Source of the DNA: a bacterium
GTDB taxonomy: Bacteria > Auribacterota > Auribacteria > Auribacterales > Auribacteraceae
NCBI GenBank assembly: GCA_021161885.1
Contig: JAGGZS010000066.1
Coordinates: 1-33,072 of the forward strand
DNA length: 33,072 nucleotides
Reading direction: 5' to 3'
The notes under the pieces are model-generated. The model did not search any database. It had not been told where the DNA came from and worked only from the letters and a program-made list of their open reading frames with translations. The position numbers and the translations under genes were made by a program. Shown here in pieces: positions 19,732 to 33,072 of this stretch. Numbering within the stretch: position 1 is the first letter of the stretch; every line of letters starts with the position of its first letter.

Positions 19732-21033
19732 TTATACTTTTACTAATTCAGCTTTTTCTCCTGTAAATTCTTCCCATCTTTGAACTGCTACATCACAAAA
19801 CACAGGTTCCAGTTCCATTGCAAACACACGACGATTAAGCCGTTCACCAGCGATAATCTGCGAACCAGACCCGGAGAACGGTTCATAACAAATATCACCA
19901 GGTTGAGTATGTACTCGCATCGGTATAGCGAACACTTCGGTAGGTTTGACTGTCGGATGTTCTAATCCGGGATTACGTTTTTTGCCTTCCCAGTCCAGTT
20001 CCCATACATCAGAATAGTAGTCCGGTGACGCAGGGTCGCCTGATTTAAAAAAATCTACACGCCAGACCGTACCGATAGATTTGTCTTTCGGTTTATACGG
20101 CGGTTTACTGCCTTGAACCCACATAAGCAAACAAGGTTCGTGTCGCCATGAATAAAACGAATAAGTAAGTATCGTACACGGTTTCACCCATATAATCTGC
20201 TGGTGTACCAAGATATTCAGTTCGTCGCATACTTGCTGAATTTCATGGCGTCGTTTTGATGCGTGCCACAAATACAAGGCCGTATTCTCTTTAATCACTT
20301 TTAACCCAACGCTATAAAAATCTTTGATAAATTTACTCGCATCAGGGATATCAACTTCATGGTATACACCTGACCAGTCTTTACCGCCGTTCGGTCTGTC
20401 TTTACCGGTATAATCAACACAATACGGCGGATCAGTAGCAAACAGTTTTGCCTTTTTACCATCCATAAGCCGAGCGACGTCATCCTCATTAGTGCTGTCC
20501 CCGCACAATAGACGATGGTTGCCGAGAATCCATAGATCGCCCGGACGGGTAATCGTTTCTTTTGGTGGTTCGGGAATATCGTCCGGTAATGTTTTTCCGC
20601 ATCCTGTATTTTCTTCCTCAAAATCTTTAAATGAATCTCTTAATTCGTTTAATCGAAGGTCTAAATAATCCTCATTCATCTGTTGTCGGAGTTCTTCCAG
20701 TATAGGAATTAAAGCTTCTGTGAAAACTCCCTGTATCTCAATATTATTCAAAGTAACATTAAGTAATCGTTCATGAATACTGTCTACATCAAGTAAAATA
20801 ACCGGTATCTCCTGAACATTCGCTTCTTTTAAAACTTTAAAACGCTGATGACCGCCGATAATGGACATATTTCGTTTATTAACGATAATCAGATCAATGT
20901 AGCCGAATTTTTCAAGGCTCTTTTTTAATCCCGTTAAAGCCGGATCGGATATTTGCCTTGGATTCCATTTTGCAGATTTTATATCCGATATTTTCAACTG
21001 CATAATTTCCGGTTTTATGTCTATTTTTGCCAT
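19732..21033 (-). CDS. ParB-like nuclease domain fused to a DNA methyltransferase (N6-A/N4-C, beta class)
   Basis: N-terminal ParB/Srx-type block (NPRQISD...IIGGHQRFKVLKE). DPPY motif (LFATDPPYCVDY) and a C-terminal SAM-binding block EPFSGSGSQIIAGERL. Confidence 0.85.
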   Translation of the reverse strand: MAKIDIKPEIMQLKISDIKSAKWNPRQISDPALTGLKKSLEKFGYIDLIIVNKRNMSIIGGHQRFKVLKEANVQEIPVILLDVDSIHERLLNVTLNNIEIQGVFTEALIPILEELRQQMNEDYLDLRLNELRDSFKDFEEENTGCGKTLPDDIPEPPKETITRPGDLWILGNHRLLCGDSTNEDDVARLMDGKKAKLFATDPPYCVDYTGKDRPNGGKDWSGVYHEVDIPDASKFIKDFYSVGLKVIKENTALYLWHASKRRHEIQQVCDELNILVHQQIIWVKPCTILTYSFYSWRHEPCLLMWVQGSKPPYKPKDKSIGTVWRVDFFKSGDPASPDYYSDVWELDWEGKKRNPGLEHPTVKPTEVFAIPMRVHTQPGDICYEPFSGSGSQIIAGERLNRRVFAMELEPVFCDVAVQRWEEFTGEKAELVKV

Positions 21034-28587: not shown

Positions 28588-28826
28588 GTTATGCTCCTTT
28601 TTTTTGATGACCTCGTCCTTCTTAAGTTCCCCTTTTTAAAAGCAAGATAAGCTGTGATATACTTTTTTGCTTCTTCTTCCGGAAACTTATAAGGTCTCAT
28701 GGTCGTAAATTGAATATCACCCAAGGCAATGATTGTATGATTATGTCGATCAACAGTTGCCCTTGGAACCCCCAGCTCCTCCGCTATGTCGTCTAATGTA
28801 AAAAGTCTTCCTGTTAATATTCCCAT
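28584..28826 (-). CDS. Small HTH DNA-binding protein
   Basis: LDDIAEELGVPRATVDRH helix-turn-helix. TAATG overlap with the upstream gene. Confidence 0.55.
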   Translation of the reverse strand: MGILTGRLFTLDDIAEELGVPRATVDRHNHTIIALGDIQFTTMRPYKFPEEEAKKYITAYLAFKKGNLRRTRSSKKRSIT

Positions 28827-29056
28827 TAAGCCACCCTCAATAAATACTTTTTGAGCCTCTGTAAATCGCTCGGTGAAATAAATAAATTTTTGCCTCTTGA
28901 TTCAGGATTAAGCCTCAACCTCCGAACCTTAATGATTCCCGCCTTCTGCCACCTCGGCCACCACTTGATAAATGTTGAATACTTAATCCCCACGTACTCC
29001 GCACCCTCTTTCATTGAATAAAATCTGGCTTGAGTTACCTTGATCACGTAAATCAC
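28826..29056 (-). CDS. Small HTH protein (excisionase/MerR-like HTH_17 type), GTG start
   Basis: FYSMKEGAEYVGIKYSTFIKWW...ISPSDLQRL follows the excisionase-family DNA-binding pattern. GTGA overlap with the cro-like stop. Confidence 0.5.
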   Translation of the reverse strand: MIYVIKVTQARFYSMKEGAEYVGIKYSTFIKWWPRWQKAGIIKVRRLRLNPESRGKNLFISPSDLQRLKKYLLRVA

Positions 29057-29328
29057 CCCCTTTCCATAATTTCGTATTGATACATATCATCCGCTTTTAT
29101 TCCTGTAGCCAAAAAAAGCCTTTTCTGCATCTCCAGAGTAGGCTCTTGTTTTTTGTTCAATAATCTTGAGACAGTAGCGTCGCTAACCCCGATTTCAATC
29201 GCAAACCCGTTCTGTCTTAAATTTTTCATATCAAGATATTTTTTGACGGTTTGTTTATTAACGAAAATGCGTACATTATCTACACGCACCCCTCTGATTT
29301 TTCCTGCTTTCCTTCGGTATCTCCTCAT
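29053..29328 (-). CDS. Cro-like XRE-family HTH repressor (first gene of the early operon)
   Basis: LRQNGFAIEIGVSDATVSRLLNKKQEPTLEMQKRL HTH. Strong SD AAGGAGAG. Divergent from the CI-like gene. Confidence 0.75.
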   Translation of the reverse strand: MRRYRRKAGKIRGVRVDNVRIFVNKQTVKKYLDMKNLRQNGFAIEIGVSDATVSRLLNKKQEPTLEMQKRLFLATGIKADDMYQYEIMERG

Positions 29329-29566
29329 ATACTCTCCTTTTGTTATAAATAATAACTTTTACTTACGTATTAAATGTAAATTTTAGATCAAAAAAATATC
29401 ATTAGATATGCTGGCATATTTTTACCTATACTTAGATATTTTTAGCTATTATGGAAATAAACTTACATCACATAATAAAATAAAGTCAATAAAAATTTTC
29501 ACTGCAATGTAAAATTTTCTTTTATTAAGTATGAAATTTAATTATATTTTACATATGGAACGTAAA
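29329..29566. promoter_or_regulatory. Immunity switch region between the cro-like and CI-like genes, containing several inverted repeats (candidate operators)
   Basis: 202-nt AT-rich divergent intergenic region. Contains TTAC-N9-GTAA at 29363-29379 and TTTAC-N9-GTAAA at 29548-29566. Contains overlapping palindromes ATATC-ATTA-GATAT (29396-29409) and ATATGC-TG-GCATAT (29406-29419). TTAGAT recurs at 29383, 29402 and 29432. Confidence 0.5.
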
Positions 29567-30253
29567 TTTTATCTTCGATTATCAAACTTAATAGAGCTTT
29601 CCAGTCAGACGAAACGATATTTTTCTAAGGCTATCGGAATGCACGAAACACACTTTTCAAGCATGTTGAAAGGACGCTTAGTCCCCCCGCCTTACGATCA
29701 GTGTGTAAAGTTGCTTGATGAACTTTCTAAATACGTTAATATTTCACCTGAAGAAAGAGAAGAATTTCTCCGCCTTGCCGGAGAAGAGAGGATCCCTGAC
29801 AAAGAAAAACCTTTTATCCCTCACGTAATAAAGTCAAAACCAATAAGAATAGAAGATGTAGGTATCCCAGTGAATAAAGTTCCTTTCATTCCTATGGAAA
29901 AGGTGTATAATATATACACAACAAACAACTTAGACGAATGCGCGACCGAGTATATGATCTCTCATCTTGGGTATAACGATCTGTTTACGACAAAAGTAAC
30001 CTGCGATTCTATGTTATACGAGTTTCGCCCTGGTGAGATTGTGTTTATCCGCACAAAACTGCTTTATAAAAACGACGACTATGTCATAGCTATTGATCTT
30101 GAGAGTAAAGAATCTTTCCTGCGGCAGTACAAAGATTACGGAGAAACCAAAGTTTTAAGACCCCTCAATCCCGCGTTCAAAGAAATATTTTTTGATAATA
30201 AAAGGTATAAAATAGTAGGTCCTGTCATCGGTAAATTTACATCGATGGGGTAA
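29531..30253 (+). CDS. CI-like repressor: N-terminal HTH plus C-terminal S24 (LexA-like) autopeptidase domain; alternative start at 29555
   Basis: HTH LIELSSQTKRYFSKAIGMHETHFSSMLKG. C-terminal VTCDSMLYEFRPGEIVFIRT (Ser block) and ...FLRQYK... (Lys block). Divergent from the cro-like gene. Confidence 0.8.
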   Translation: MKFNYILHMERKFYLRLSNLIELSSQTKRYFSKAIGMHETHFSSMLKGRLVPPPYDQCVKLLDELSKYVNISPEEREEFLRLAGEERIPDKEKPFIPHVIKSKPIRIEDVGIPVNKVPFIPMEKVYNIYTTNNLDECATEYMISHLGYNDLFTTKVTCDSMLYEFRPGEIVFIRTKLLYKNDDYVIAIDLESKESFLRQYKDYGETKVLRPLNPAFKEIFFDNKRYKIVGPVIGKFTSMG

Positions 30254-30298: not shown

Positions 30299-30700
30299 AT
30301 GAAAAAACTGCTATTGCTAATCTTATTCGGATATATTGCTGTCAATATATCTTCCTGTTCTGTAATTATGGCGGTACAAAAACCAGAAAAAAAAGATGTT
30401 ACTATTTTTCAAGAAGGAATGCCCCGTAATATGATACTTGCTGAATTCGGTCCACCCGTATCATCAGATATAAATAAAAATGGAAACAAAGAAGAAATGT
30501 GGACGTTTGATAAAGGTGAATCTAAGTGGTGGAAAGGTTTAAGAGCGGTTTTTCATACAGCTGCAGATGTCTTTACACTTTTTCTTTGGGAAGTTGTTGC
30601 CATACCAACGGAGTTAGCATTAGAAAAGAATTCATCCACGTATGTGGTTGAGTTCGATAACGATAATAAAGCTACAAAAATTCAATGTTTGAGAAAATAG
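30299..30700 (+). CDS. Lipoprotein (BamE/SmpA-like turn motif; second hydrophobic helix near the C-terminus)
   Basis: Signal peptide with lipobox MKKLLLLILFGYIAVNISS-C. EGMPRNMILAEFGPPVSS. Hydrophobic AVFHTAADVFTLFLWEVVAIP. SD GAGGTG. 45 nt after the CI-like stop. Confidence 0.7.
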   Translation: MKKLLLLILFGYIAVNISSCSVIMAVQKPEKKDVTIFQEGMPRNMILAEFGPPVSSDINKNGNKEEMWTFDKGESKWWKGLRAVFHTAADVFTLFLWEVVAIPTELALEKNSSTYVVEFDNDNKATKIQCLRK

Positions 30701-30728: not shown

Positions 30729-31745
30729 ATGAAAAAAACATTAGCCATACTGTCACTATTTTTTCTTGTATTCACTTGCCCTGTGTTTCCTGATCAAACT
30801 GTTGATGAATACGTATCGAAAAAAATACAAGAATCCTATAAAAATATTAAAAAAAACGGTAATTTTGCTTTATTATGTTTACCTGGTACTCTTGAATTTG
30901 GTATTGCTGGTAATTATAATACATGGCAAGAAAAACGATTTGATAATAAAAGAATACTACAAGAAATAGACACCTTAAAAAATGAGACAAACAATAATAT
31001 TTACATTGTTATACAAGTCTCTTTTATAGGCGATGCAACTGGTGACGAAATAAAATCATTAAAAATTCCTAAGGATATTCAAGATTATATCTTTTTAGAA
31101 AATAACAACGGTCTGTTTATTCGATGCAGTAAAGCAGAAATCTCTGGATACAATTATACAGTTAATCAATTTACAGATCACATTCAAATAGCACTAAAAT
31201 TCCCAACAATCCACCCAGAAACAAACGAGTCTATCTTCAATGATACAGAAACAATAAAAGTGATTGTCGGCGGTTTAGGGTTTGAAGATCACACATTCGA
31301 ATATAAACTACCTCTCTCTGATTACTACTTAGACGCCCCGGACGTACTAAAAAAACTCTACTATGAATCAGGTATATGGGAACGCGAAAACGAGTCTCAG
31401 GTTATCGTGGATTCTAATCCAGATCCACAGCCTGCAGAAAAGAAAACAGAACGCGATTACCAGGAACAATGGGCGAGGGAACACGGTGCTAAGATTGAAG
31501 TACAATTGCGTGACGGTACCAGGGTAGATTGTTTAACCGATACGCACGCCATAGAAGTTGACTTTGCTCGTAAATGGACTGAGGCGATCGGTCAATCAAT
31601 GCATTATTCCAGGATGACCGGCAAACGTGCCGGCATTGTTCTGATAATAACAGACCCAGACGACATGAAATACTGGGATCGGCTGAAAAAACTAATAGAG
31701 CACAGCGGTCTGCCGATCGACACGTGGAAGCTCGAGGATTATTGA
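30729..31745 (+). CDS. Exported or membrane-anchored protein with a C-terminal PD-(D/E)XK-like (restriction-endonuclease-fold) domain candidate
   Basis: N-terminal MKKTLAILSLFFLVFTCPVFPDQ. C-terminal about 100 aa: KIEVQLRDGTRVDCLTDTHAIEVDFARKWTEAIGQSMHYSRMTGKRAGIVLIITD. The 3' third of the gene is markedly GC-richer than the 5' part. Confidence 0.6.
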   Translation: MKKTLAILSLFFLVFTCPVFPDQTVDEYVSKKIQESYKNIKKNGNFALLCLPGTLEFGIAGNYNTWQEKRFDNKRILQEIDTLKNETNNNIYIVIQVSFIGDATGDEIKSLKIPKDIQDYIFLENNNGLFIRCSKAEISGYNYTVNQFTDHIQIALKFPTIHPETNESIFNDTETIKVIVGGLGFEDHTFEYKLPLSDYYLDAPDVLKKLYYESGIWERENESQVIVDSNPDPQPAEKKTERDYQEQWAREHGAKIEVQLRDGTRVDCLTDTHAIEVDFARKWTEAIGQSMHYSRMTGKRAGIVLIITDPDDMKYWDRLKKLIEHSGLPIDTWKLEDY

Positions 31746-31764
31746 TTTAAAGAGAGAATATATA

Positions 31765-32211
31765 ATGAGCTATTTGGATCCATTTGAGCATTCTTTTATG
31801 AAACACACTTTATCCATTATTGAAAAGTACAAGGGTGAATATGGTGCCACTATACTAATCAATTGTCTTCTTGGCCTACTTGTTCTGCCAAAAGAAGAAT
31901 TCATAACACTCATTCCTGAATGTAAAATAGCGGACAATATAGATCAATGGGGTATAACATTCACAAGTATAGAATCAACAAGTACTTCAAGAAAAGCGAA
32001 TCTTCATCCTAATACAATACGAGGTTTTGTCATTGATCTACGGCATGCTATTGCCCATTTTAATATCGAACATGTCACTATTGACAACCAACTTGAAAGT
32101 GAGGTAGTTGCTTTTGAATTCACTAATGACCATGGTTTTAAAGCGAACCTTAAATTAGAAGAGTTACGTGCGTTTGTTACGAAATTAGCGCAACATCTTG
32201 ATAGAAGCTAA
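31765..32211 (+). CDS. HEPN-domain protein candidate (Rx4H motif)
   Basis: 148 aa, helical, IRGFVIDLRHAIAHFNIEH contains R-x4-H. 19 nt after the preceding gene. Confidence 0.55.
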   Translation: MSYLDPFEHSFMKHTLSIIEKYKGEYGATILINCLLGLLVLPKEEFITLIPECKIADNIDQWGITFTSIESTSTSRKANLHPNTIRGFVIDLRHAIAHFNIEHVTIDNQLESEVVAFEFTNDHGFKANLKLEELRAFVTKLAQHLDRS

Positions 32212-32329
32212 AAATTTAAAATTACCTGATTACCGAGCATCTACAGTAACGTCTATCCCCTCGCAGTAGGCATGGTCATTATATGAAGGTTAATTTTTGA
32301 ATCTAAAATAGGCTAAAAAGGAGGCAATT

Positions 32330-32542
32330 ATGGTCAGTAATAAAAAATTTCAAAAACACTGCAGGTTTAAAGGAAGAAAGGTTACTTTATCTCAAAAAGC
32401 TAATACAGAAAAAGGAAGTGACAGGATAATAGACTACACTCCTCCAATATGTGAGGATAAAACGTATGATTGTTATAATAAATTTGATTGTGAGTATGCT
32501 TCAGGTGGAATAGGCGGAAGAGGTAGTAAAAATCCATTTTAA
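32330..32542 (+). CDS. Hypothetical small basic protein with four Cys
   Basis: 70-aa ORF with a strong SD (AAAGGAGG, 6-nt spacer). No recognisable motif. Confidence 0.45.
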   Translation: MVSNKKFQKHCRFKGRKVTLSQKANTEKGSDRIIDYTPPICEDKTYDCYNKFDCEYASGGIGGRGSKNPF

Positions 32543-32644
32543 ATTAAACATAAAAGAATTATATAGTTTGTGTGATATTAAATTTTTTGATAAAATAGAG
32601 GCAACGACTATACAAAAATTTGATTCATGAAAAGGTATTTGAAT

Positions 32645-33072
32645 ATGAATAAACAAATTGTTGCCATTGATTTATTCTGTGGAATAGGCGGATTGTCGCA
32701 TGGATTACAAAAATCAGGTATTGAAGTTATTGCCGGATTTGATTCAGATCCTTCTTGCAAATATGCCTACGAGGCAAACAATAATTCAAAATTTATTGAA
32801 AGAGATGTTGCCGAAATAACCGCTAAGGAACTCAAGGCATTATATCCTCCCGGGTCAATAAAAATTCTTGTGGGATGTGCTCCTTGTCAAACTTTTTCAA
32901 AACATACGTTAAAAAATAAAAATCGCGAAAAAGACAAAAGATGGGGACTATTATATCATTTTTTAAGATTAATTACTGAGGTCAAACCCCATTATGTTTC
33001 TATGGAAAATGTTCCGCAATTAAAAAAATACGATATTTTTACAGATTTTATTCAAGGATTAAAAAATGAACA
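32645..33072 (+). CDS. DNA (cytosine-5) methyltransferase, 5' part (continues beyond the window)
   Basis: My translation from ATG at 32645 is MNKQIVAIDLFCGIGGLSHG (motif I), ILVGCAPCQTFS (motif IV catalytic Cys, PCQ) and VSMENVPQL (motif VI ENV). Not in the ORF track because it is partial. Confidence 0.85.
   Translation, partial: MNKQIVAIDLFCGIGGLSHGLQKSGIEVIAGFDSDPSCKYAYEANNNSKFIERDVAEITAKELKALYPPGSIKILVGCAPCQTFSKHTLKNKNREKDKRWGLLYHFLRLITEVKPHYVSMENVPQLKKYDIFTDFIQGLKNE

Follow-up and report, generated by a model that had tools for sequence, protein, structure and literature searches.

How does a phage genome come to encode, within one open reading frame (ORF), an AT-rich exported half and a much GC-richer half with the fold of a nuclease, and what might such a protein do for the cell that carries it? 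This question is raised by positions 30,729 to 31,745 of contig JAGGZS010000066.1 (contig C32 of its bin; 33,072 bases), the entirety of which was analyzed and is hereafter referred to as the window. A preliminary description, made from the letters of the DNA, had read the ORF as a recombinational fusion of a foreign nuclease-like module onto a protein bearing a signal peptide. Our analyses show this reading to be right in outline, and the composition of the C-terminal domain (hereafter referred to as the C domain) is indeed foreign to its surroundings. We propose, with a probability of about one half, that this gene, recombined from two modules, specifies an exported DNase, probably dimeric, which would be made by the lysogen and located in its envelope.

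We searched with the whole protein and with each of its halves. The whole-protein search returned 30 matches, among which the window's own protein alone spanned both halves; two matches aligned with the N-terminal part (39-42% identity) and 27 with the C-terminal part only (22-35% of the query). The C-terminal part, used alone, proved to have free-standing homologues in quantity: all 985 short candidates (30-184 residues) matched it at E ≤ 1e-3, and the best 120 of these relatives, mostly 107-160 residues long, were 53-64% identical to it. Among 28 candidates of 593-2000 residues, none proved to be a relative, and hence a longer fusion of the C domain, which is weak evidence. An exhaustive HMMER scan of 1.84 billion representatives retrieved the N-terminal part in 46 of them (E ≤ 1e-3), most of which were 200-235 residues long, and the C-domain motif was present in none of the 46. 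Among 78 further genomes of the phylum, none contained the C domain and one contained the N-terminal domain (N domain), as a weak match (E = 3e-6). Thus, each half occurs alone elsewhere, which supports the modular reading of the preliminary description.

The fusion protein as such matched no family in Pfam (E ≤ 1), NCBIfam (threshold 0.1) or PADLOC; the one PHROG match, to phrog_5928 (E = 0.007 and 0.00056), was not usable, and phmmer and profile searches of the PDB gave rows at chance level only. As judged from these comparisons, the two-domain combination is unique to the window's protein among everything searched. The N domain and a 20-residue linker occupy the exact place that the signal peptide has in the free-standing C-domain proteins. 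The two domains were modelled separately; a merged two-domain alignment misaligned the N-domain relatives (identity 12-21%) and was discarded.

The preliminary description had considered the export of the nuclease-like domain an oddity created by the fusion, and this view did not survive the examination of its relatives. A motif search located the domain in 130 of 150 proteins (the 20 left unmatched by the motif include two N-domain proteins), and a hydrophobic leader preceded it in 121 of the 130 (118 strong, 3 weaker); in seven the upstream part was too short to judge and two were without a leader. Leaders were also present in both translated homologues from cultured phages. Two cysteines of the C domain, Cys14 and Cys33, were both present in 109 of 126 sequences, both missing in 14 and single in 3; in this set of relatives, which are not independent of one another, they covary as a disulfide would. 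Some relatives carry extra modules of a type characteristic of exported proteins, namely Lcl_C, Cys-rich tails or a GGHxxxxGxYHYH stretch. Judging from these features, the C domain is natively exported, as a protein of about 125 residues with its own signal peptide; its export is therefore not a product of the fusion. As a separate observation, small extra modules without a Pfam match were seen in seven free-standing relatives (P0008, P0019, P0107, P0010, P0015, P0017 and P0030), namely an N-terminal GGHxxxxGxYHYH or a C-terminal Cys-rich tail (W-I-S-S-T-G-K-x-H ... C-x-x-C-G-G).

The leader of the window's protein has a basic n-region (MKK) and a 12-residue core; the export of this copy is predicted as well, with support from the context of its family. 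The preliminary description had also offered an uncleaved hydrophobic anchor with a cytoplasmic C domain; this arrangement is unlikely, given the Lys-Lys at the N-terminal end of the leader, the occurrence of both domain families behind leaders, and the periplasmic partner domains found in relatives (TonB_C and SH3_3). With respect to internal initiation, the ATG at 31469 is out of frame, as had been stated, and the statement that no in-frame internal start exists has to be amended: an in-frame GTG occurs at 31407 (Val227), and in-frame ATGs lie deeper in the C domain. We considered an internal start that would yield a cytoplasmic C domain and rejected it; the GTG at 31407 exists, but it is not marked as a start, and the family members carry leaders.

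We then consider the composition of the ORF. The GC contents counted by hand for the preliminary description proved exact: 0.233 at 30841-30900, 0.283 at 31081-31140, 0.394 at 31201-31380, 0.470 at 31381-31680 and 0.333 at 31801-31860, in the next gene. The contrast resides mainly at third codon positions (GC3; 0.244 for residues 25-225 vs 0.505 for residues 246-338); the first and second positions shift too (GC1, 0.43 vs 0.55; GC2, 0.27 vs 0.39), because of the amino-acid content. A GC jump of at least 0.197 over 300 nucleotides (nt) occurred at 0.47% of the window positions, elsewhere only at the coding-to-intergenic edge near 28700-29600. To place the shift within the genome, we ranked its 1170 non-overlapping ORFs of at least 250 residues by the maximum GC3 difference between two non-overlapping 93-codon windows. 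With a value of 0.387 (median 0.172, 99th percentile 0.326), the fusion ORF ranked second; it also ranked second among the 733 ORFs of 250-450 residues, and 11th of the 1170 by the shift in total GC. The only larger intragenic GC3 shift in this genome (0.452, with a total-GC shift of 0.337) was found in a 297-residue ORF on another contig (C34, 423-1313, + strand). The change-point likelihood of the fusion ORF was matched by none of 2000 codon shuffles. These results, taken together, place the shift beyond the normal variance of the genome.

The shift does not, however, coincide with the nuclease-like domain, as had been supposed. The best single change point for GC3 was codon 157 (0.18 to 0.45) and that for total GC was codon 179 (window position 31266), the likelihood profile being almost flat between codons 150 and 240. 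A three-zone model (GC3 of 0.18, 0.39 and 0.62, with breaks at codons 157 and 293) gained just 3.7 log units. In 20-codon blocks, GC3 was 0.05-0.30 up to codon 160, 0.35-0.40 in codons 161-240 and 0.40-0.67 from codon 241 to the end. The domain border lies at residues 218-240, the N domain ending at about residues 217-220 and the C domain starting at residue 241, so the rise starts some 60-80 codons before the C domain. The shift is thus a ramp that begins inside the N domain and not a sharp step at the domain border.

To learn whether a high GC content is characteristic of the C-domain family, we compared the domain with its flanks at 142 family loci. The two were correlated (r = 0.87), with a difference of 0.002 ± 0.045 and a maximum of +0.097; at the 37 low-GC loci, the domain had a GC content of 0.39 and a GC3 of 0.35. 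Because the GC content of the domain normally follows that of its surroundings, a high value is not a property of the family. In the window, the C domain exceeds its flanks by +0.103, more than at any of the 142 loci, and this copy looks as if it had recently arrived from a background of about 48-50% GC. The adjoining lysogeny genes are AT-rich at third positions (GC3 of 0.27, 0.255 and 0.22 vs a genome mean of 0.35). A blastn comparison of the ORF with 170-odd related loci revealed no nucleotide-level donor, the best matches having 70-79% identity over 80-162 nt, in the conserved core.

A gradient of this kind would also arise if the contig were a chimera joining two organisms. The bin is fragmented (345 contigs) and the fusion was observed once only, which would suit a chimera. 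We therefore turned to Logan contigs from two runs of one study, both hydrothermal-vent metagenomes and possibly the source sample. These contigs covered 30992-31850 and 31113-31850 with no differences and so extend from before the GC rise, through the linker and the C domain, into the HEPN gene that follows; they break at 30897-31113, inside the AT-rich part, which would likewise suit a chimera, and 30897-30992 is uncovered in both runs. Because the contigs of a second assembler reproduce it, the junction is not an artefact of the bin assembly. In addition, the frame is open throughout, both domains are whole, and the C domain is complete minus exactly its signal peptide. Low-GC phage sequence returns on the 3′ side, so that two in-frame chimeric joints would be required. 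We consider a chimeric origin extremely improbable.

The C domain, of 98 residues, is a minimal PD-(D/E)XK domain. Its model, with a mean predicted local distance difference test score (pLDDT) of 97.1, has the alpha-beta-beta-beta-alpha-beta core of this fold. All 126 sequences have D267, E276, Q289 and Y293, and most have E257 (125), D278 (125), E241 (124), K282 (119) and K299 (116). D267 and E276 fall on the model strands E30-34 and E38-44. Q289 and Y293 form a QxxxY motif on the helix that follows strand 3, and the gap of 11 residues before the Gln equals the K176-Q187-Y191 spacing of NucS. The motif as a whole is collinear with residues E127, D160, E174, K176, Q187 and Y191 of NucS/RecB, as given for that group (PMC7343888). 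This resemblance is not accompanied by homology that sequence searches detect: neither the protein nor any of 28 family members had a Pfam match at E ≤ 1, and the family profile had no PDB match. From the RecB-like C-terminal domain of NucS/EndoMS (PDB 2vld), to which it has no sequence relation, the C domain also differs in having Asp in place of Lys176; moreover, the C-domain protein is without the N-terminal DNA-binding domain and the PCNA motif, and it is exported and phage-borne, whereas NucS is a cytoplasmic repair enzyme. The nearest named cluster in the ESM Atlas was XisH (0.82).

A homodimer model of the C domain scored 0.51 (best control, 0.00), with 100% of the contacts agreeing between runs and partner pLDDT of at least 91. 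Among proteins of solved structure, 20 of 30 pairs of one chain scored at least as high, and so did 1 of 23 single chains. The modelled interface is formed by helices 2 and 3 and includes K282, E285, G288 and Q289.

The N domain belongs to an unannotated family of periplasmic domains; its 46 representatives have been mentioned above. It resembles generic exported beta-sandwich proteins (MPT63, DUF4785 and DUF4426), the scores being generic ones at the level of the fold, without a sequence relation. Elsewhere, the N-domain family is fused to TonB_C (E = 4e-13 and 6e-20) or to a coiled coil and SH3_3 (proteins P0168, P0182 and P0152); the SH3_3 match in the N-domain relative is below threshold (E = 5.7e-4, 20.4 bits vs a cut-off of 27). 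With an alignment of nine rows, none of 151 viral pattern matches belonged to this family, and nine metagenome contigs that carry it had varied neighbours. We take the N domain to be an envelope spacer or a binding module.

We next describe the genetic setting of the fusion gene (Table 1). The window represents the genome of a temperate siphophage resembling lambda, which was assigned to the bin of a diderm bacterium from a hydrothermal-vent metagenome; this bin comprises 2.56 Mb (91% complete, 37.0% GC). Genes on the - strand matched PHROGs for the central tail fibre J, tape measure, major head, portal, and large and small terminase proteins and for a ParB-methyltransferase, an O-like replication initiator, RusA and an exonuclease, which mark this strand as the late and early region of a siphophage; the leftward arm holds the replication, recombination, packaging, head and tail genes. 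The ParB-methyltransferase gene (19732-21033, - strand) joins a ParB-like domain (phrog_620, E = 4.9e-25) to a DNA methyltransferase (phrog_498, E = 1.5e-105). The bin encodes Omp85 and three secretins, and the host therefore has an outer membrane.

Table 1. Features of the immunity region of the window and of the fusion ORF. GC and GC3 are fractions; E, E-value.
Feature	Position	Strand	Evidence and remarks
Cro-like helix-turn-helix regulator, first gene of the leftward (lytic) arm	29053..29328	-	Pfam HTH_3, E 1.7e-6
AT-rich divergent intergenic gap between cro-like and cI-like genes; presumed operator/promoter, by position	29329..29530		GC 0.175-0.25 in 120-nt windows
cI-like repressor with S24 (LexA-type) autopeptidase; heads the rightward lysogeny unit	29531..30253	+	Pfam Peptidase_S24, E 5.1e-11
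Predicted lipoprotein, 133 residues (leader ends ISSC), 45 nt 3′ of the repressor gene	30299..30700	+	phrog_3135, E 3.5e-6, function not assigned
Fusion protein ORF, 338 residues, stop included	30729..31745	+	sole long frame there; single copy in the genome
Export leader, residues 1-21: MKK, 12-residue hydrophobic core, TCPVFP	30729..30791	+	sequence; leaders of N-domain relatives
N domain, residues 22-220: helical hairpin and Ig-like beta-sandwich, rare exported family	30792..31388	+	GC3 ~0.18 to codon 157, ~0.39 beyond
Linker, residues 221-240, acidic and Pro-rich; in-frame GTG at 31407	31389..31448	+	alignments; pLDDT <50 at model residues 203-208
C domain, residues 241-338, PD-(D/E)XK fold	31449..31742	+	GC 0.48, GC3 0.51
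HEPN gene, pEK499_p136 family, 19 nt 3′ of the fusion ORF	31765..32211	+	Pfam PF18736, E 3.9e-21
Cytosine-5 DNA methyltransferase (Dcm), 5′ part, runs off the contig end	32627..33070	+	TIGR00675 dcm, E 6.4e-22; PADLOC MTase_II, E 4.8e-36

On the + strand, the product of the cI-like gene also matched phrog_4 (transcriptional repressor, E = 4e-18) and phrog_6201 (CI-like repressor). From this gene on, successive genes are 45, 28 and 19 nt apart and no terminator-like site separates them, which suggests that the repressor, lipoprotein, fusion and HEPN genes form one unit headed by the repressor; the HEPN gene is probably in the same transcription unit as the fusion ORF. We take the operon from this layout, because promoter and terminator scans gave matches not above those of shuffles. 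As the third gene of a repressor-led unit, the fusion gene is, from its position, most likely expressed during lysogeny.

The neighbours in the unit deserve brief mention. The lipoprotein has a hydrophobic C-terminal stretch, and its Pfam match to BamE is below threshold only; none of its relatives adjoined C-domain or N-domain genes elsewhere, and it is possibly a lipoprotein of the exclusion type. The HEPN protein had no PADLOC or PHROG match, and its gene was not beside any C-domain relative elsewhere; it may by itself be a lysogeny-expressed defence gene of the RNase type. The 415-nt gap between the HEPN and Dcm genes (32212-32626) contains one 70-residue ORF (32330-32542) without a Pfam match, the GC content being 0.23-0.26 at 32500-32680. 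With the PADLOC models, the fusion protein, the lipoprotein and the HEPN protein gave no matches, and the Dcm fragment alone did.

We examined the distribution of the C-domain family and the genes that surround it. The family comprises 985 protein clusters at 90% identity (one search), at least 360 genome loci, counted on contigs of one genome per species, and 219 IMG/VR contigs. Its hosts include Desulfobacterota, Gammaproteobacteria (Endozoicomonas, Thiotrichaceae), Verrucomicrobiota, Nitrospinota, Zetaproteobacteria and Gastranaerophilales. All database names that we met were 'hypothetical protein'; 28 members had no Pfam match, PHROG matches were at chance level only, and there was no NCBIfam or PADLOC model. 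Eight GenBank records represent seven distinct cultured phages (Nitratiruptor NrS-2 to NrS-5, Rhizobium RR1-A in two records, Salicola SCTP-2 and Dulem virus 31); the homologue adjoins a LexA-like repressor in Nitratiruptor phage NrS-4 and a recombinase in Rhizobium phage RR1-A.

Neighbours at 23 genome loci (54 neighbour proteins) vary; several are phage-like, with an S24 repressor directly upstream at one of them (L058). In a metagenome-assembled genome of Mariprofundaceae (L065, 4742-6706), a free-standing C-domain gene is flanked on one side by the gene for DNA polymerase I and on the other by a gene for a cytosine methylase fused to an HpaII restriction enzyme. The target gene could be called at 73 of the 80 viral loci retained, and at these it had 142 immediate neighbours. 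An integrase, repressor, anti-repressor or excisionase was an immediate neighbour at 13 of the 73 loci, and a repressor lay upstream on the same strand at seven viral loci (L086, L088, L089, L091, L100, L105 and L121), some of which are near-duplicates. Lysis genes were neighbours at 3 of the 73, head, connector or tail genes at 10 and a DNA polymerase at 1; at most of the other loci, no neighbour was recognizable. Thus, the C-domain family is common in temperate phages, often beside a repressor or an integrase.

These neighbourhoods bear on two other functions that an exported nuclease could have. The first is the degradation of extracellular DNA, for nutrition, for biofilm remodelling or for freeing virions from DNA released by lysis. 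It would draw on the same fold, motif and export evidence as the envelope-located DNase that we propose, and is not distinguished from it computationally. The relatives beside lysis genes (3/73) or inside structural modules (10/73) and the gene for an Excalibur-domain protein that adjoins the C-domain gene at one genome locus would fit such a role, and the three secretins of the host bin could pass the protein outward. Secreted DNases encoded by streptococcal prophages are an example of such a use; one secreted DNase borne by a prophage is Spd1 (PMC7538557). On the other side, lysogeny genes are the most frequent recognizable neighbours (13/73), and in the window the gene stands in the repressor unit, as befits a function for the lysogen. 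We regard an extracellular role as unlikely.

The second is that of an effector resembling polymorphic toxins, in which the N domain would deliver a C-terminal nuclease toxin to competing cells and the downstream HEPN protein would confer immunity. The putatively toxic domain does form the C-terminal end of the protein, and a small gene follows after 19 nt; PoNe DNase toxins belong to this superfamily (PMC6688995). Such toxin domains (CdiA-CT, TseT and PoNe), however, form the ends of large delivery proteins and invariably come with an immunity gene, whereas the fusion protein is small, has a Sec-type leader and lacks a conserved neighbour. Across the 23 genome loci and 73 viral loci, no downstream gene is conserved, and the HEPN and lipoprotein genes are never beside the relatives. 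The family consists of Sec-exported proteins of about 100 residues without receptor-binding or translocation parts, and long multi-domain forms were found in none of 28 candidates. An effector of this kind is very improbable.

The sequence of events and activities that we envisage for the lysogen-made envelope DNase is as follows. Recombination would have swapped the signal peptide of a C-domain protein for a beta-sandwich protein and a linker, and the 3′ part would retain the composition of its GC-richer source (about 48-50% GC), which would imply that the event was fairly recent or that the joint lies within the N domain. The gene would be expressed in lysogeny along with the repressor. The C domain would act as a metal-dependent phosphodiesterase, probably as a dimer, and would cleave extracytoplasmic DNA, be it in the periplasm or on the surface of the cell. 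The beta-sandwich part, possibly with a lipid anchor, would retain the protein in the envelope. The lysogen would thereby gain a barrier at its envelope against misdirected DNA of superinfecting phages or against free DNA.

Several observations weigh against this proposal. As for the recombination, a simple joint at the domain border fails to explain the ramp, because the rise starts at codons 157-180, inside the N domain; either the joint itself lies there, the fusion having pre-existed in a GC-richer relative, or its position is unresolvable with 338 codons. N-domain genes are AT-richer than their locus at 9 of 10 loci, by up to 0.12, so part of the contrast is a trait of the N-domain family; an internal ramp was seen in none of these genes. 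As for the setting, the contig is without host flanks, and integration and host assignment rest on binning; for the same reason, we speak of a prophage on account of the repressor. As for export, the leader has an atypical site with Pro at -1 (VFP, where relatives have VFA with Ala at -1); Cys17 follows V-F-T, a weak and non-canonical lipobox, which makes the type of cleavage uncertain; and the window's copy has Cys33 without Cys14, being one of the three single-Cys sequences. As for the barrier, ComEC was not found in the 91%-complete host bin, and a role against transformation is therefore unsupported in this host. The DNA of an infecting phage is normally enclosed in a conduit on its way through the periplasm, which makes the access of a periplasmic nuclease to it doubtful.

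The remaining objections concern catalysis. The preliminary description had called the C-terminal part PD-(D/E)XK-like, which holds for the fold and the conserved acidic residues and fails for the Lys of the canonical (D/E)xK: of the 126 sequences, 125 have Asp at this position (D278 in the window's protein) and one has Glu. The domain is mildly acidic (isoelectric point 5.5-5.8; family median 5.9), which is unusual for a non-specific DNA binder, and some residues may be conserved for dimerization and not for catalysis, because K282, E285, G288 and Q289 are in the modelled interface. These same points would be expected if the C domain were a non-catalytic binding or scaffold module, the protein then being a structural or adhesive envelope protein or a surface factor of lysogenic conversion. 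The likeness of the N domain to generic exported beta-sandwiches would agree with such a role, as would the label 'KilA-N domain-containing', a DNA-binding label, borne by several structural look-alikes of the C domain in BFVD (E = 5e-7 to 2e-4, template modelling score 0.67-0.83, 19-29% identity); the Pfam KilA-N model (PF04383), however, matches neither the window's protein nor anything in the genome. The look-alikes include these proteins of giant viruses, namely mimivirus, moumouvirus, megavirus, Heterosigma akashiwo virus and Tetraselmis virus.

What speaks for catalysis is the pattern of conservation. E241, E257, D267, E276 and D278 stand at the metal positions of the PD-(D/E)XK fold and are kept in 124-126 of 126 sequences across very distant hosts, whereas inactive derivatives of this fold usually lose residues of the metal site. 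Some restriction enzymes are active with an all-acidic variant of the motif; BamHI and BglII are without the canonical Lys and active nonetheless. To be catalytic, the C domain would have to use an all-acidic site like that of BamHI or recruit a Lys at another position, and the nearby K282 or K299 might substitute for the canonical one. We therefore give the non-catalytic module a smaller, though appreciable, chance and retain the envelope DNase as our proposal.

How does this proposal relate to systems already described? The preliminary description had regarded a nuclease targeted to the envelope as an unusual way for a prophage to intercept incoming DNA. Periplasmic DNases carried by mobile elements and directed against incoming DNA have already been described, however: IdeA of ICE VchInd5, SxnA of SXT and Dns of prophage CJIE1 (PMC12378983). 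They share with the fusion protein their location on a mobile element and export to the periplasm, which is predicted for the fusion protein; the destruction of incoming DNA, proposed or shown for them (PMC12378983), is proposed here. They belong to other protein families, and their activity was shown experimentally, whereas that of the fusion protein is presumed. Dns has an endonuclease domain typical of secreted and periplasmic endonucleases (PMC12378983), whereas the fusion protein had no match to Endonuclease I or non-specific endonuclease domains in Pfam (E ≤ 1) or NCBIfam (0.1). The effect shown for these DNases is on natural transformation, a process for which the present host bin, in which ComEC was not found, offers no support.

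The position of the gene has its own parallels. The rexAB genes of lambda, sieA/sieB of P22 and similar genes are expressed with the repressor and presumably benefit the lysogen against other phages. The likeness lies in the place directly downstream of cI in the lysogenic unit and in a presumed benefit against phages; the difference is that these are unrelated cytoplasmic or inner-membrane proteins, none of which is an exported protein with a nuclease fold. Thus, what is new is not the kind of function but the protein family proposed to perform it and the tethering of its domain to a second one.

As a product of phage mosaicism, of which the GC gradient is the footprint, the single fusion is a curiosity; the unannotated family of exported PD-(D/E)XK proteins to which its C-terminal module belongs matters more. 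This family brings together three features that are rarely combined: the restriction-endonuclease fold in a minimal form, a Sec leader accompanied by a covarying Cys pair, and adjacency to a repressor or integrase. In the open-access full texts searched, an exported PD-(D/E)XK family encoded in prophage immunity regions was described nowhere. It is a tentative extension of our proposal, less probable than the proposal itself, that the signal-peptide-bearing proteins of about 125 residues constitute a widespread and unrecognized nuclease barrier, which prophages would place in the envelope together with their repressor and which, by means of an all-acidic ExD site, would act against superinfecting-phage or free DNA; the fusion protein would then be a tethered variant. 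If the family is inactive, it would be an example of the restriction-endonuclease fold reused outside the cytoplasm. If its members are active exported nucleases, they would add a new enzyme family to the short list of envelope DNases placed by mobile elements, and the cultivable NrS phages of Nitratiruptor and Rhizobium phage RR1-A would provide a testable candidate for research on phage defence and gene transfer.

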